Virus record (IMG/VR): IMGVR_UViG_2541047428_000017
Strand: one strand, 5' to 3'
DNA from: a virus
Lineage: Duplodnaviria > Heunggongvirae > Uroviricota > Caudoviricetes
Length of the DNA stretch: 5,204 nucleotides
Below the pieces are notes generated by a model. That model did no database searches, was not told the DNA's origin, and worked only from the letters and a program-made list of their open reading frames with translations. The position numbers were made by a program, and so were the translations under genes. Each line of letters begins with the position of its first letter. Within the stretch, counting starts at the first letter, position 1. Shown piece by piece: positions 1 to 5,108 of the stretch.

Positions 1-40
1 GTTATTGGTGTGTCACGTTAACCGGAAAAGGGAAAAAGAC

Positions 41-238
41 ATGCTGAAACAGCAGGATATGACAGAAACCGCCAGAGTGGTGTTTAATGAATTAAGCGTT
101 ACCGACCCGGCGACAGTCGGGGAGATTGCGCAGAATACTTACCTTTCACGCGAACGCTGCCAGTTAATACTGACCCAGCTGGTTATGGCGGGTCTGGCAG
201 ACTATCAGTTTGGTTGTTACAGACGCCTTCAGTCCTGA
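41..238 (+). CDS. hypothetical small protein (65 aa); family not recognised
   Basis: ATG at 41 with AAGGGA about 8-13 nt upstream; frame runs to TGA 236-238. The same frame is stop-free back to position 2, so a longer protein entering from the left edge cannot be excluded. A frame-1 stop at 19-21 fits an upstream gene ending just before this start. Confidence 0.4.
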   Translation: MLKQQDMTETARVVFNELSVTDPATVGEIAQNTYLSRERCQLILTQLVMAGLADYQFGCYRRLQS

Positions 239-265
239 AGGCTTTTTTATTTGTGGTAAATGGGC

Positions 266-296
266 GGCTGGTGGGTGTAAGGGGCACCCACCAGCC
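266..296 (+). other. perfect 12-bp GC-rich inverted repeat (stem-loop), function unknown
   Basis: GGCTGGTGGGTG (266-277) pairs with CACCCACCAGCC (285-296) with no mismatch; 7-nt loop TAAGGGG. A T-run (244-249) lies 5' of the stem, not 3', so it is not a canonical intrinsic terminator on either strand. Confidence 0.55.
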
Positions 297-388
297 ATCT
301 GCTCATGCGTTGGGTTCACAAGCAAACCTCAGGCCCACTGCTTTGCGCAAAAGCAGAATGAGCCTATCAGAGACAGGCTTAATGATCC

Positions 389-1446
389 ATGCTTAATACT
401 GTAAAAATATCCAGTTGTGAGTTAATCAACGCCGACTGCCTGGAATTTATGCGGTCGTTACCCGAAAATTCTGTTGACCTGATAGTCACGGACCCGCCGT
501 ACTTCAAAGTGAAACCCGAGGGCTGGGATAACCAGTGGGCGGGTGATGAAGATTACCTGAAGTGGCTGGACCAGTGTCTTGCGCAGTTCTGGCGGGTGCT
601 GAAACCTGCCGGAAGTCTTTACCTGTTCTGTGGCCATCGTCTGGCATCTGACACCGAAATCATGATGCGTGAGCGGTTTAACGTGCTGAACCATATCATC
701 TGGGCAAAGCCGTCCGGACGCTGGAACGGGTGCAACAAGGAAAGCCTGCGGGCGTATTTCCCCGCCACAGAGCGCATTCTGTTCGCAGAGCATTATCAGG
801 GGCCGTATCGTCCGAAAGATGCCGGGTATGAGGCGAAGGGTAGGACACTGAAACAGCATGTGATGGCCCCGCTGATTGCTTACTTTCGTGATGCGCGCGC
901 TGTCCTGGGGATAACGGCAAAACAGATTGCAGATGCCACAGGAAAGAAAAACATGGTGTCGCACTGGTTCAGTGCCGGTCAGTGGCAGCTGCCGAACGAA
1001 AGCGATTATCTGAAATTACAGGCACTGTTTGCCCGGGTGGCAGAAGAGAAGCATCAGCGGGGTGAACTGGAAAGCCCCACCACCAGCTGGTGGATACGTA
1101 TGCCTCTCTGAACCGACAGTATGCGGAGCTGCAGAGTGAATATAAGCATCTGCGGCGGTATTTCGGTGTGACGGTGCAGGTGCCGTACACCGATGTGTGG
1201 ACGTATAAACCGGTGCAGTACTATCCAGGGAAACATCCGTGCGAAAAACCGGCAGAAATGTTGCAGCAGATAATCAGCGCAAGCAGTCGTCCGGGAGACC
1301 TGGTTGCAGATTTCTTCATGGGGTCGGGGTCGACAGTGAAAGCAGCGATGGCGCTGGGACGTCGTGCAACTGGCGTTGAACTGGAGACTGAACGTTTTGA
1401 GCAGACGGTGCGGGAAGTACAGGATTTAATCATTCGTAACGGATGA
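389..1446 (+). pseudogene. beta-class N6-adenine/N4-cytosine DNA methyltransferase, interrupted by a frameshift
   Basis: Frame-2 ORF 389-1111 carries motif IV DPPY (DLIVTDPPYF, nt 491-502). Frame-1 ORF (open from 1066, listed 1090-1446) carries the AdoMet motif I FxGxG (DFFMGSGST, nt 1312-1335). Order IV then I is the beta-class arrangement. Both parts are needed for activity; combined length is about 352 codons. The frames overlap at 1066-1111, next to a C4 run at 1075-1078. No SD ahead of 389, and no independent RBS for the second part. Confidence 0.75.
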
Positions 1447-1486
1447 GATTGCGGAGTTAATCATGCGTCGTTATTATTCAGCAATC

Positions 1487-1562
1487 GGCCCTTTAGCTCA
1501 GCGGTGAGAGCGAGCGACTCATAATCGCCAGGTCGCTGGTTCAAATCCAGCAAGGGCCACCA
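1487..1562 (+). tRNA. ileZ: tRNA with anticodon CAU, tRNA-Ile2 (lysidine) type or tRNA-Met; resembles the phage ileZ class
   Basis: Hand-folded cloverleaf: 7-bp acceptor stem GGCCCTT/AAGGGCC, U8-A9, D stem GCTC/GAGC with GG in the loop, anticodon loop CTCATAA, 5-nt variable loop, T stem GCTGG/CCAGC with TTCAAAT loop, discriminator A, encoded CCA. From memory it resembles E. coli ileX. Ile2 versus Met cannot be settled by eye. Confidence 0.85.
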
Positions 1563-1563
1563 A

Positions 1564-1625
1564 CCGCCACTAGCTCATCAGGAAAGAACGTCACCCTGTG
1601 CGAGATTCGGAGTCCCCGGTGGCGG
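1564..1625 (+). other. degenerate tRNA-like remnant (62 nt)
   Basis: CCGCCAC (1564-1570) pairs perfectly with GTGGCGG (1619-1625) like an acceptor stem and is followed by TA-GCTC as at tRNA positions 8-13, but no anticodon or T arm can be folded. Confidence 0.35.
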
Positions 1626-1642
1626 TCCATTATCGGTATTCT

Positions 1643-1719
1643 GCGTTGTTAGCTCAGCCGGACAGAGCAATTGCCTTCTAAGCAATCGGTCACTGGTTCG
1701 AATCCAGTACAACGCACCA
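1643..1719 (+). tRNA. tRNA-Arg (anticodon UCU, decodes AGA)
   Basis: Hand-folded cloverleaf: acceptor GCGTTGT/ACAACGC, D stem GCTC/GAGC, anticodon stem ATTGC/GCAAT with loop CTTCTAA, T stem ACTGG/CCAGT with TTCGAAT loop, discriminator A, encoded CCA. Confidence 0.88.
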
Positions 1720-2005
1720 CACCACACTTATCTGCCCTGACTCTCTTTTGCGGGCTTTTTATTACAGGAAAGACACCGGACAGTGAAATGTTAAATGCCT
1801 CACAATTCAGGCAGTTGACTGTTGCCTGACATGCTGAGCGTTTGTTAAAAAAATCCTGCATGATGAATCCCCCTGAGCGGCGGGGCATAATGACAGATGT
1901 TTGGTTGCGTATTGTATAGGCAAGTTGCGGATTCTGTCTGGTCATTGCAGAATTCACCGGGAGGCACCCGGCATCATGCTGTATACAGAGATTAGGCATA
2001 TATCC

Positions 2006-2031
2006 AGGCTTCTCATCGCAGGAGCCTTTTT
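2006..2031 (+). terminator. candidate intrinsic terminator (+ strand)
   Basis: 7-bp stem AGGCTTC/GGAGCCT (2006-2012 with 2021-2027, one G-U pair), 8-nt loop, then T5 (2027-2031). Confidence 0.35.
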
Positions 2032-2037
2032 ACATGC

Positions 2038-2063
2038 AAAAAAAAGCCCGAGTGGGTTCGGGC
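2038..2063 (-). terminator. candidate intrinsic terminator (- strand)
   Basis: GCCCGA/TCGGGC stem (2046-2051 with 2058-2063), 6-nt loop, flanked on the + strand by A8 (2038-2045), which is a U8 tract after the hairpin on the - strand. Confidence 0.45.
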
Positions 2064-2123
2064 AACAGCATGAGATACTTGCATTGTCATTTTTATCGTG
2101 TGGATTTTAACCAGGGTTTATAA

Positions 2124-2154
2124 GGCTGCGCAACTGCGCGGCCTTTTTCGTTTT
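2124..2154 (+). terminator. candidate intrinsic terminator (+ strand) upstream of the esterase gene
   Basis: 8-bp stem GGCTGCGC/GCGCGGCC (2124-2131 with 2136-2143, one G-U pair), loop AACT, then TTTTTCGTTTT (2144-2154). Confidence 0.55.
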
Positions 2155-2242
2155 GCGGGCTGCGGTTCTCCTCTTTTGATTCTCCTTGTGGCCGGACCGT
2201 GGCCCGCAACTGTTGAGGAAAATCCCGGAAAGGGGAGGAATA

Positions 2243-4180
2243 ATGACATTTAAACATTATGATGTTGTCAGGGCGGCGTCGCCGTCAGACCTTGCGGAAA
2301 AGCTGACACACAAACTGAAAGAGGGCTGGCAGCCGTTTGGTAGTCCTGTGGCCATAACCCCTTATACCCTGATGCAGGCGATTGCCGCGGAGGGGGATGT
2401 GACCACGCCAGTGGTTGTGCCCGGCACGGGGGATGGTGGCTATCCGGGAGTGGTCACCACGGAGCCAGATTATTACTACGTTATTCCACTGGCCGGGCAG
2501 TCGAACGGCATGGCTTACGGTGAGGGGCTTCCTCTGCCGCAGACATATGACCGTCCTGACCCGCGTATAAAGCAACTGGCTCGTCGCAGCACAGTGACGC
2601 CGGATGGCGCTCCCTGTAAATATAACGACATTATTCCGGCAGACCACTGTCTGCATGATGTACAGGACATGAGCCGTCTTAACCATCCGAAAGCTGACCT
2701 GTCGAAAGGTCAGTACGGAACCGTGGGGCAGGGGCTGCATATTGCCAAAAAGCTGCTGCCGTTTATACCGGCGAATGCGGGTATTCTTCTGGTTCCGTGC
2801 TGCCGTGGTGGTTCAGCTTTCACCACCGGGGCAGATGGAACATACAGTGACGTGACCGGTGCCTCAGAGAGTTCTACCCGCTGGGGTGTGGGCAGGCCGC
2901 TGTATAAGGATCTCATCGGTCGTACAAAAGCCGCGCTGGCAAAGAACCCGAAAAATGTGCTGCTTGCCGTGGTGTGGATGCAGGGGGAATTTGACTTTGA
3001 CGGAACGCCAGCAAATCACACAGCCCGTTTTACAGAAGTAGTGGAACAATATCGTACGGACCTTGCAGATATGGTGGGACAGTGCGCTGGTGGTTCTGCT
3101 GACGGTGTTCCCTGGATATGTGGAGACACAACTTATTTCTGGAAGCAGAAGAGCGAATCCACTTACCAGACGGTGTACGGCAGTTACAAAAACAAAACGG
3201 AAAAGAATATTCACTTTGTGCCGTTCATGACCGATGAGAACGGAGCAAATGTCCCGACGAACAAACCGGAAGAAGACCCGGATATTCCGGCATCAGGATA
3301 TTACGGTGCGGCCTCCCGGACGTCGGCAAACTGGACGTCAGCAGACCGTGCGAGCCATTTCAGCTCATGGGCACGCAGGGGGATTATTTCTGACCGTCTT
3401 GCCTCAGCGATTCTTCTCCATGCAGGACGGACGGCTGAACTGGTGGGTGGGGAACAGGTTGTGATGCCGCCGGATGAGAAGCCGTCACCGGACACACCAT
3501 CAACACCGTCAACGGACGGGAAATCAGTGACAACGCTGCTTTATTACCGTGCAACAGAGTCAGGTGGTTTACTGAATCCGCAGGGATGGGGAGCTGAAGG
3601 AGGGCGTGCATTGGTAGTTGATGATGCAGGTGCTGCAGGAGGTAAGGCGCTGAGGTGGACCAAACAGACAGGAAGTTCCTCGTGGTTTATGCAGCATGAT
3701 GCCGGTAATGGCGCAGACCTGCTGGAGAAGGGCGGGCTTATCAGTTGTCGTTTTAAAGTTGATGGCACACTGACAGCTAATCAGTACGCACTGGCGCTGT
3801 ACTGGCCGGTTTCTTCACTGCCTCAGGGTGTCACACTGGAAGGTAATGCCGGTCATAACCTGCTGGCGTCGTTTTACGTACAGAGCGATGCCACAGACCT
3901 TAATGTGATGTACCACAAGGGAAATGCTGGTCAGAACACGAAGCTGGGGTCATTCGGCGCATTTGATAACGAATGGCATACGCTGGGCTTCCGTTTTGCC
4001 GGTAACAACAGTATTGAGGTGACGCCGGTCATTGATGGTAAGGACGGGACGCCGTTCATGCTGTCACAGTCACCGGTCGGCACGTTTACGGCAGACAAAT
4101 TGCGCGTGACCGATATCACTAGCGGTGCGACATATCCGGTGCTGATTGAAAGTATAACAGTGGAAGTGAATAACCCGTAA
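2243..4180 (+). CDS. nanS-p: prophage NanS-p-type sialate O-acetylesterase (645 aa): N-terminal DUF1737-like region, SGNH/SASA esterase domain, Pro/Ser/Thr linker, C-terminal beta-rich domain
   Basis: ATG at 2243 with GGGAGG SD 4-9 nt upstream (the listed TTG at 2186 is less likely). GQSN catalytic-serine motif of the sialate O-acetylesterase family at nt 2495-2506 (Ser87). PST-rich linker PPDEKPSPDTPSTPSTDG at about nt 3466-3520. Length and position (after phage tRNAs, before the lysis genes) match the gene found downstream of stx in Stx phages. Confidence 0.88.
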   Translation: MTFKHYDVVRAASPSDLAEKLTHKLKEGWQPFGSPVAITPYTLMQAIAAEGDVTTPVVVPGTGDGGYPGVVTTEPDYYYVIPLAGQSNGMAYGEGLPLPQTYDRPDPRIKQLARRSTVTPDGAPCKYNDIIPADHCLHDVQDMSRLNHPKADLSKGQYGTVGQGLHIAKKLLPFIPANAGILLVPCCRGGSAFTTGADGTYSDVTGASESSTRWGVGRPLYKDLIGRTKAALAKNPKNVLLAVVWMQGEFDFDGTPANHTARFTEVVEQYRTDLADMVGQCAGGSADGVPWICGDTTYFWKQKSESTYQTVYGSYKNKTEKNIHFVPFMTDENGANVPTNKPEEDPDIPASGYYGAASRTSANWTSADRASHFSSWARRGIISDRLASAILLHAGRTAELVGGEQVVMPPDEKPSPDTPSTPSTDGKSVTTLLYYRATESGGLLNPQGWGAEGGRALVVDDAGAAGGKALRWTKQTGSSSWFMQHDAGNGADLLEKGGLISCRFKVDGTLTANQYALALYWPVSSLPQGVTLEGNAGHNLLASFYVQSDATDLNVMYHKGNAGQNTKLGSFGAFDNEWHTLGFRFAGNNSIEVTPVIDGKDGTPFMLSQSPVGTFTADKLRVTDITSGATYPVLIESITVEVNNP

Positions 4181-4193
4181 GCAGGAAAAAAAG

Positions 4194-4233
4194 GCCGCCG
4201 GGGCAGGGAAAACAAGGAGCCAGAACCGGCGGC
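4194..4233 (-). terminator. weak terminator-like hairpin, readable on the - strand
   Basis: 8-bp GC stem GCCGCCGG/CCGGCGGC (4194-4201 with 4226-4233) with a long 24-nt loop; the A7 run at 4186-4192 is a U-tract after the hairpin on the - strand. The long loop makes it doubtful. Confidence 0.2.
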
Positions 4234-4327
4234 AAATGTCGTTATATCCAAAGCAAAACATGCAGGACACTTTTTTAACCAACAGGTATTAACGATGTCA
4301 ACACCATATCAATAACCGGGAGGGATA

Positions 4328-4892: not shown

Positions 4893-5108
4893 ATGTACCA
4901 GATGGAAAAAATCACAACGGGTGTGTCATACACCACGTCAGCGGTGGGGACGGGATACTGGTTACTGCAGCTGCTGGACAAAGTCTCTCCGTCCCAGTGG
5001 GTGGCGATAGGTGTGCTGGGGAGTCTGCTGTTTGGCCTGCTGACGTATCTGACTAACCTGTATTTCAAAATCAGAGAGGACCGTCGTAAGGCGGCGCGGG
5101 GAGAGTAA
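4893..5108 (+). CDS. S: S21-type class II holin (pinholin), 71 aa
   Basis: GGGAGA SD 7-12 nt upstream of ATG 4893. Two predicted transmembrane segments ([16 protein letters not shown] and [23 protein letters not shown]) and charged tail [13 protein letters not shown], close to phage 21 S as I remember it. Met1 and Met4 (MYQM) form a possible dual start. Confidence 0.85.

Follow-up and report, generated by a model that had tools for sequence, protein, structure and literature searches.

The 5,204-bp stretch of DNA analysed here (the window) carries an interval of 523 bp between a tRNA-Arg gene and a nanS-p-type esterase gene (positions 1720-2242), at the place where an Stx toxin locus holds stxA and stxB between the tRNA cluster and nanS-p. 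This raises the question of what such an interval represents in a prophage that has no toxin genes: an unoccupied toxin site, the scar of a deletion, the gene of a small protein, or a locus of another kind.

Genomic context and gene order

The window matches the chromosome of Escherichia coli O157:H7 PV15-279 at 99.9% and that of F3113 at 99.7%. Its counterpart in PV15-279 is a degraded lambdoid prophage, adjoining an ompW fragment and an integrase gene, which contains IS1203 insertions, several frameshifted genes, paa, nleC (as a pseudogene) and nleG7.

A small ORF (41-238) is followed on the plus strand by a DNA N6/N4 methyltransferase gene (389-1446) whose two halves both hit PF01555, one at profile positions 1-106 and the other at 121-220. 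Near position 1071 an A-run has lost 1 nt, visible as an alignment gap, and the gene is thereby split into ORFs 389-1111 and 1090-1446; in PV15-279 it is unbroken (1059 bp). The tRNA cluster, also on the plus strand, begins with a tRNA gene of the ileZ type with a CAT anticodon (1487-1562; Rfam tRNA score 70.9 bits), which is called Met by ARAGORN and tRNA-Ile ileZ by the RefSeq and Sakai annotations, and ends with argO, encoding tRNA-Arg(TCT) (1643-1719; ARAGORN; Rfam 71.4 bits). Between these two lies a third, degenerate tRNA (1563-1630, plus strand), recognised by its alignment to argN of 933W and phi296, in which a 12-bp deletion took out the anticodon loop; neither ARAGORN nor Rfam returned a call for this argN remnant. 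Downstream of the interval, the plus-strand gene at 2243-4180 encodes a nanS-p-type sialate O-acetylesterase of 645 aa (Pfam DUF1737, SASA and DUF6645), named "SASA family carbohydrate esterase" in RefSeq and syntenic with ST933Wp42 of 933W. Genes for a DUF1378 and a DUF826 protein stand between it and the class II (P21-type) holin gene S (4893-5108, plus strand; PF04971, 112 bits; RefSeq annotation), with which the lysis cassette starts. The order methylase, tRNAs, NanS-p esterase and holin, on which the original prediction was built, is the one obtained with ARAGORN, Pfam and the RefSeq/Sakai annotation.

Two convergent small RNA genes in the interval

The interval had been described as empty, but about 270 of its 523 bp are taken up by two small RNA (sRNA) genes, and only some 25-30 bp are vacant.

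The first sRNA gene, located on the plus strand (1829-2037), is a member of the STnc100 family and corresponds to the EcOnc28 copy of the Sakai prophage Sp9. It matches the Rfam family RF02076 over its full length (model positions 1-206) with 175.2 bits, for a gathering score of 47, and has its terminator at 2006-2033. The RNA is a homologue of EcOnc27/sRNA103 and is related to PasD, and RF02076 also matches 3' of stxB in 933W and BP-4795. When seven divergent STnc100-type copies were folded with RNAalifold, 34 consensus pairs were obtained, and at six of these the double changes are compensatory; the six include an A-U pair that the window's copy has in the long-range closing helix. EcOnc28 itself was described as an Hfq peak in Sp9 and as the plus-strand neighbour of EcOnc03 (Tree et al. 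2014 Table S2, PMC4104026), and is placed at about 1936-1981 of the window, assuming a constant 137-bp offset between the Sakai record versions.

EcOnc27, encoded by the Stx2 phage Sp5, has been reported as a discrete Hfq-associated RNA with a size of about 235/247 nt and was later equated with sRNA103; it overlaps the STnc100 prediction (Tree et al. 2014, PMC4104026; Sy & Tree 2021). Because of this reported size, a conserved block immediately upstream of the Rfam match (TTAAATGCCTCACAATTCAGGCAGTTGAC…; 1791-1828, plus strand), which is kept in 933W, BP-4795, phi296, OkiPb01712 (L006) and 23CRST047 (L007) and bounds the cargo slot described below on the right, is probably the promoter or the 5' part of the STnc100-type RNA. 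Were this RNA as long as EcOnc27 (about 235-247 nt), it would begin at about 1790-1800, on the right junction of the slot. A consensus scan for the promoters of both sRNAs gave weak sites with 9/12 matches, none of them convincing, and transcription from the sole consensus-like site on the plus strand (1826-1854, 9/12 matches) would start inside the Rfam model.

The second sRNA gene is arranged tail to tail with the first (the two end at 2037 and 2039), is located on the minus strand (2039-2098), and encodes EcOnc03, an anti-sRNA of the AgvB/AsxR family with its terminator stem at 2046-2063. Positions 2042-2092 on this strand are identical in 51 of 51 nt to the published EcOnc03 sequence (Tree 2014 Fig. 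S4). With the Rfam models of the family (RF02702/RF02703), the gene scores 56.6 bits for AgvB (gathering 56) and 46.8 for AsxR (gathering 63), the former barely over and the latter under its gathering score because the 5' region differs; with scores this marginal, family membership rests on the conserved 3' part and on the exact EcOnc03 match. The 3' two-thirds fit the AgvB/AsxR consensus nearly exactly, while the 5' part diverges from both. The hallmark of the family is present, namely a conserved 3' region of about 42 nt with a small hairpin, the terminator GCCCGAACCCAYUCGGGC and a U-tail, and both hairpins are found in the predicted fold (z -2.17). The Rfam span of 60 nt, with its 5' part predicted to be unpaired, also agrees with the family, whose members measure 51-60 nt and begin with 14-18 nt of variable, single-stranded sequence. 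Members of the family are encoded antisense in convergent pairs at the moron site, between PR' and the lysis genes, and the gene lies here between the antiterminator gene, as seen in L001, and the esterase and holin genes.

EcOnc03 has been characterised in strain Sakai, where it is encoded on the minus strand of Sp9, forms an opposite-strand pair with EcOnc28 and gives bands of 56, about 54 and 51 nt on northern blots (Tree 2014 Table S2, PMC4104026). It was crosslinked to Hfq and destabilised in a delta-hfq strain (Tree 2014, PMC4104026), and was the third most abundant of the unannotated Hfq-bound RNAs in Sakai (Tree 2014 Table S2, PMC4104026). Its sequence is exactly conserved in hundreds of genomes.

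Terminators

The three terminator-like hairpins that had been noted in the interval were all found by a terminator scan (2006-2027 on the plus strand, 2063-2046 on the minus strand and 2122-2145 on the plus strand), compared with 1.1 +/- 1.1 sites expected in shuffled sequences, and all three are backed by folding (z -3.87, -2.17 and -2.10, respectively). The first is the terminator of the STnc100-type RNA and the second that of EcOnc03. The third is an intrinsic terminator ahead of the esterase gene (AAGGCTGCGCAACTGCGCGGCCTT followed by a T-rich tail; 2122-2153, plus strand), which is unchanged in 933W, BP-4795 and phi296 (fold of -18.3 to -19.8 kcal/mol) and appears to overlap, on the opposite strand, the likely promoter region of EcOnc03. 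An inverted-repeat search with a seed of 6 returned zero repeats for 1700-2260, because the stems include G-U pairs or span no more than 6 bp; they are detected by the terminator scan and by folding.

The earlier reading of the interval, as a non-coding spacer and unoccupied toxin site that holds terminators only, would account for these three hairpins, for the absence of a conserved ORF and for the RefSeq annotation, which is blank here in all genomes listed. We regard it as very improbable in view of the full-length STnc100 match of 175 bits, the exact identity to the experimentally detected EcOnc03, the compensatory base-pair changes, the maintenance of the block at 76-83% across phages with differing cargo, and the Hfq crosslinks and northern signals recorded at the nearly identical locus of Sp9 (Tree 2014, PMC4104026).

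Coding potential

The statement that the interval contains no credible ORF was upheld: neither the 69-aa ORF with a TTG start (1901-2110) nor four other candidate ORFs gave a Pfam match, and the reading frames are not conserved. The counterparts of the 69-aa frame in 933W, phi296 and L008 contain in-frame stops and indels of 1, 2, 4 and 5 nt. A small protein, encoded either by this ORF or by a 116-aa ORF on the minus strand (1649-1999), might nevertheless be argued from PHROG matches to both ORFs (phrog_23494, E 5e-14, and phrog_27294, E 1e-18) and from the annotation of "ORF42" at the equivalent place in the BP-4795 record. The PHROG matches of the interval's ORFs are, however, to families of "unknown function" only, typical of gene-caller output over conserved non-coding DNA, and were taken as such artefacts; the ORFs moreover cross two terminators, and the minus-strand ORF extends into a tRNA gene. 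Together with the in-frame stops and non-triplet indels and the negative Pfam search, this makes a protein-coding role of 1720-2242 the least credible of the alternatives, and an exceedingly unlikely one.

Borders of the cargo slot and relation to stx

As judged from the flank alignments, the vacant slot is the stretch of about 30 bp between the tRNA terminator and the conserved block TTAAATGYCTCACAATTCAG, which begins with TTAAATG. The left border (1735-1760, plus strand; …TTTTGCGGGCTTTTT) is what is left of the terminator after the tRNA genes and aligns with the "terminator upstream of the stx genes" of 933W. Its 5' arm is mutated in both the window and Sp9, so that no stable hairpin is formed (z +0.32 for the fold of 1720-1790). 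The slot itself (1761-1790) holds a filler of about 30 bp (ATTACAGGAAAGACACCGGACAGTGAAATG).

Comparison with cargo-bearing loci defined these junctions. Between the window and 933W, homology extends through argO and the T-run at 1756-1760, breaks off, and restarts at about 1786-1800, downstream of stxB; with the Stx1 phage BP-4795 it restarts at 1786, so that the right breakpoint is shared. In OkiPb01712 a cluster of 1,345 bp, with four genes of which one encodes a TerB-family protein, is inserted between the points that correspond to 1760 and 1786 of the window, and stx2AB of 933W and the TerB cluster of OkiPb01712 thus occupy the slot between the same two breakpoints. In 23CRST047 nothing separates the T-run from TTAAATG, which indicates that the filler of about 30 bp at 1761-1790 is dispensable; here the equivalent of 1980-2242, comprising the anti-sRNA half of the sRNA pair and the esterase leader, has given way to an iraM gene encoded on the other strand. 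Sp9 and the stx-free phi296 are colinear with the window throughout, and both share the slot filler.

The BLASTN comparison of the flanks with Stx phages that had been proposed for this locus thus yielded breakpoints, at about 1760 and at 1786-1800, which bracket stx2AB, the right one also bracketing stx1AB. The flanking genes are those of the stx locus, with ileZ-argN-argO and the terminator on the left (argN being degenerate) and the sRNA pair, nanS-p and the lysis genes on the right. Between the tRNA cluster and nanS-p, the window has neither stxA nor stxB, and the gap from argO to the esterase gene measures only 523 bp. With Stx1A/B and Stx2A/B as tblastn queries, neither the window nor the 45-kb prophage region showed stx remnants (E of 0.67 at best); the same queries gave E=0 with the controls 933W and BP-4795. 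Of the proposed stx-free relative or unoccupied cargo site, the relationship to Stx phages and the absence of toxin genes were therefore sustained by the flank alignments and the stx searches, whereas the locus is not empty. The converse proposal, that this spacing is merely common among non-Stx prophages and unrelated to stx flanks, holds for the spacing, which is common, but not for the relationship to the stx flanks, which is clear.

Such a relationship could also have arisen by loss, the locus being a deletion scar left when stxAB was removed from an Stx phage ancestor, most likely an Stx1 phage. The right flank (1947-2424) is indeed 88.7% identical to 46 Stx1a phage records, and in BP-4795 the exact 51-mer of EcOnc03 is found some 297 bp past the 3' end of stx1B. 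Neither a fragment of stx nor a remnant of an stx promoter was found, however, and BP-4795 has no tRNA genes or methylase before stx1, so that a simple deletion cannot yield the arrangement of the window. Furthermore, the filler of about 28 bp is common, with one mismatch, to the stx-free Traversvirus phi296, a distant phage with 74% identity over the region, and the motif ATCTGCG, with which both cargo-bearing loci continue after the terminator, is missing in the window. We therefore consider a deletion scar improbable, if somewhat less so than an empty spacer.

The evidence from the sRNA genes, the terminators and the junctions argues strongly that 1720-2242 is the late-region moron locus of an stx-free lambdoid prophage of E. 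coli O157:H7 close to Sp9, composed of a vacant slot of about 30 bp, a convergent pair of sRNA genes of the EcOnc28/EcOnc03 type, and a terminator with the nanS-p leader, and we hold this reading with high confidence. The present analysis established which elements are present, that their RNA structure is conserved, where the cargo junctions lie, and that the interval has neither stx nor a credible ORF; Hfq binding, RNA sizes and 5' ends are taken from the literature on strain Sakai.

Distribution and related loci

Of 5,426 complete E. coli genomes, 491 contain the 523-bp interval as one contiguous match covering 80% or more of its length. The best match has at least 99% identity in 356 records and reaches 100% in several O157:H7, O111:H8 and other strains. 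Among the genomes listed, no RefSeq annotation was found under the interval match.

The sequence downstream of PR' is known to tolerate moron insertions and to carry convergent sRNA genes, with the stx2-bearing Sp5 as an example (Tree et al. 2014, PMC4104026), and the same organisation occurs in Sp3, Sp4, Sp9, Sp10, Sp11, Sp15 and Sp17 (Tree et al. 2014, PMC4104026), the stx-free spacing being that of Sp3, Sp4, Sp9, Sp10, Sp11 and Sp17, alongside the two Stx phages. In Sakai, eight or more prophages, the majority without stx, have been reported to bear convergent sRNA "dyads" at their moron sites (Tree et al. 2014, PMC4104026; Sy & Tree 2021). The architecture, both RNAs, and their association with stx-bearing as well as stx-free prophages are thus already published, and the interval is the known EcOnc28/EcOnc03 dyad locus of the Sp9 type, an arrangement that is common and not special to this prophage.

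The closest relative is Sp9 of Sakai (ileZ3-argO3, EcOnc28/EcOnc03, ECs_1781; PMC4104026), which has the same 523-bp layout and an identical EcOnc03. Its gene order (antiterminator, ECs_1779, methylase, ileZ3, argO3, gap, ECs_1781, S) is that of the window, and positions 1400-2400 are 99.3% identical without gaps. Sp9 differs in being only 90.6% identical over positions 1-3414 and in having, at the position downstream of the esterase gene, neither the DUF1378 and DUF826 genes nor the EcOnc33-like element of the window; the methylase gene is frameshifted in the window.

Phage 933W/Sp5 shares with the window the tRNA cluster, the terminator after argO, the convergent sRNA pair, the terminator and the esterase gene; its own order is argO, terminator, stx2A, stx2B, a gap of 486 bp, and the esterase gene. 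This gap contains Rfam matches to STnc100 (207.7 bits) and AsxR (88.1 bits), the latter starting 282 bp after stxB, as published, and placed like EcOnc03 in the window. In contrast to the window, 933W has stx2AB (about 1.3 kb) in the slot, an intact argN and no adjacent methylase gene; its anti-sRNA is AsxR, which targets FnrS and has another variable 5' region, and the dyad block shows about 76% DNA identity to that of the window. BP-4795 has an STnc100-type RNA, the identical EcOnc03 51-mer and a right flank with 83-89% identity from 1786 onward, but carries stx1AB almost directly after Q, with no tRNA genes or methylase upstream.

AgvB (EcOnc01a/b; Sp10 and Sp17) resembles EcOnc03 in its short length, its conserved 3' region of about 42 nt with a terminator, and its position in a convergent dyad. 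It is distinguished by its 5' region, which contains a CACAACA motif that mimics GcvB targets and that EcOnc03 does not have.

A third sRNA gene, similar to EcOnc33, was located 3' of the esterase gene (4186-4268), where the EcOnc33 northern probe matches exactly at 4234-4268. It ends in a terminator (GCCGCCGG…CCGGCGGCC followed by U7; inverted repeat 4194-4201/4226-4233), its fold has a z of -2.69, and the polarity of the probe together with the terminator points to the minus strand. The window can in this respect be compared with EPEC E2348/69, where PasD2, an esterase gene and PasA follow each other (Pearl Mizrahi 2021; Zhu, Shabalina & Storz 2026): in both, an STnc100/PasD RNA is located 5' and a short terminator-bearing sRNA 3' of the esterase gene. 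PasD has been reported to be related to STnc100, and PasD2 and PasA to flank the esterase gene (Zhu, Shabalina & Storz 2026 preprint). In the window the two sRNA genes are about 2,150 bp apart, compared with about 2,170 bp reported for PasD2-PasA; the likeness is one of arrangement, and the EcOnc33-like element may correspond to PasA.

Search for the target of EcOnc03

AgvB acts as a sponge by pairing with the R1 seed of GcvB, and AsxR pairs with the terminator loop of FnrS (Tree 2014, PMC4104026); for EcOnc03, no target has been published. The 5' regions of AgvB, AsxR and EcOnc03 were screened against 18 Hfq-dependent sRNAs of E. coli K-12 (NC_000913), scoring local duplexes of at most 28 nt with accessibility derived from unpaired probabilities, and 60 shuffles. 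An earlier scheme, based on full-length duplexfold and opening energies, was dropped after its positive controls failed and long spurious duplexes appeared.

The control pair AgvB-GcvB was recovered (-15.8 kcal/mol, z -3.3, 0/60 shuffles as good), whereas AsxR-FnrS was missed, so that the screen detects strong seed mimicry but not weaker loop interactions. Within this limited sensitivity, no convincing partner of EcOnc03 was found among the 18 core sRNAs: the best were GcvB (-4.9 kcal/mol, no better than shuffles with 13/60 as good) and MicA (-4.2 kcal/mol, 1/60). EcOnc03 was also paired with RNAs of the window, namely the STnc100-type RNA convergent with it, the RNA resembling EcOnc33 and the leaders of five genes, and none of these beat the shuffles.

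Proposed function of the locus

In the model that we propose, the two back-to-back terminators would end two convergent Hfq-binding sRNAs, the STnc100-type RNA on the plus strand and EcOnc03 on the minus strand. In the lysogen, each sRNA would be transcribed from its own promoter and end at its own terminator, and these terminators may at the same time shield the esterase and lysis genes. After induction, RNA polymerase modified by Q and starting from PR' would be expected to pass all terminators and reach the esterase and lysis genes. The STnc100-type RNA would act as a base-pairing Hfq sRNA. EcOnc03 may pair through its single-stranded 5' region with another RNA and neutralise it, a sponge activity that is proposed because its relatives AgvB and AsxR act in this way against GcvB and FnrS, respectively.

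Significance

What appears to be an empty toxin site of an E. coli O157:H7 prophage is a published locus of regulatory RNAs, so that the present work corrects a record rather than reporting a discovery. The locus is hidden by its annotation: RefSeq is blank in the genomes inspected, and phage records and PHROGs lay spurious small ORFs over both RNA genes. Scans of lambdoid late regions for vacant cargo sites or for novel small proteins will encounter such loci again. The useful outcome is a precise map of the junctions, together with a warning for annotation pipelines; the two junctions, the T-run of the tRNA terminator on the left and TTAAATGYCTCACAATTCAG on the right, provide a sequence handle to catalogue the cargo of this slot across prophages.

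A more speculative extension, to which we give a low probability, is that the sRNA dyad is not a mere passenger but defines and services the slot, and that EcOnc03 might neutralise an RNA outside the classical set of Hfq sRNAs. If this is true, the long STnc100-type RNA would have its 5' end at the TTAAATG block of the right junction, and any cargo landing in the slot, be it stx1, stx2 or TerB, would gain an sRNA and a terminator as a ready-made 3' end. Even a prophage free of toxin genes would then still rewire the regulation of its host.

Small RNA genes of the late region

A putative EcOnc33-like sRNA gene is located on the minus strand of the window (4186-4268), shortly downstream of the esterase gene, and was recognized by an exact match to the EcOnc33 northern probe at 4234-4268 and by a minus-strand terminator at 4194-4233 (GCCGCCGG…CCGGCGGCC, followed by U7). 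EcOnc33 was described as an Hfq-bound sRNA of ~71 nt and placed in the Sakai prophage Sp6 (Tree 2014, PMC4104026). Rfam holds no family for the element, which makes a third sRNA gene of the window, at ~2,150 bp from the STnc100-type RNA. This spacing agrees with that reported for the PasD2-esterase-PasA arrangement of EPEC, a likeness in layout.

The interval between argO and the esterase gene (1720-2242) displays a single mismatch to the prophage of E. coli O157:H7 PV15-279, at position 2005 (C in the window, T in PV15-279), directly 5' of the terminator stem of the STnc100-type RNA (2006-2027). The allele of the window is found in >300 further genomes with 100% identity.

The two sRNA genes of this interval and their equivalents are without PGAP/RefSeq annotation in all genomes listed, and the phage records place hypothetical ORFs over them (L004 3950-4177 and L003 3372-3802, the loci of phages BP-4795 and phi296): ORF42 in BP-4795, and three PHANOTATE ORFs in phi296. 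The protein families phrog_23494, 27294 and 24488 of PHROGs, listed with "unknown function", match translated non-coding DNA of the interval.

The published pairing of AsxR, the anti-sRNA of the Stx2 phage 933W, with FnrS was not recovered by a simple duplex-plus-accessibility model (L002 5985-6037 against the FnrS locus L011), in which Spot 42 and ArcZ outscored FnrS. Where members of this anti-sRNA family make contact at a terminator loop, in-silico predictions of their partners are therefore not reliable.

Methyltransferase, tRNA genes and repeats

The methyltransferase gene (389-1446) is divided over two ORFs because of a 1-nt deletion within an A-run at 1065-1075, which in the sequence comparison reads GGAAAG in the window versus GGAAAAG in PV15-279. 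Either half still matches PF01555, and the split could be a true pseudogene or a sequencing error in the homopolymer. A degenerate argN (1563-1630), called by neither ARAGORN nor Rfam, is placed between both tRNA genes and has lost its anticodon loop through a 12-bp deletion; the argN of Sakai Sp9 is in the same degenerate state, while that of 933W and phi296 is intact.

Directly after the small ORF 41-238, a terminator-like intrinsic hairpin (218-249) is followed by a T-run with one T more than in PV15-279. A perfect 12-bp inverted repeat with a 7-nt loop (GGCTGGTGGGTG / CACCCACCAGCC; 266-296) has no T-run on either strand, and is overlapped by a weak match to Rfam P26 (E 0.076).

Alternative cargo at the late-region locus

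The late-region locus of the window holds other cargo in two E. coli strains. OkiPb01712 carries, exactly in the stx slot, a four-gene cluster that includes TerB-family and DUF3927 proteins (L006 2256-3600), while 23CRST047 retains the STnc100-type RNA (132 bits) and possesses an opposite-strand iraM gene (L007 2450-3124) where the dyad's anti-sRNA half and the leader of the esterase gene would otherwise lie. Directly after the tRNA terminator, 933W (L002 4410-4418) and OkiPb01712 (L006 2258-2266) have the motif (T/G)ATCTGCG in common, which is absent at the vacant sites of the window, Sp9 and phi296. The cargo of the two loci with this motif is unrelated (stx2 in 933W versus TerB in OkiPb01712), and the motif itself may be the remnant of a shared insertion or recombination sequence.
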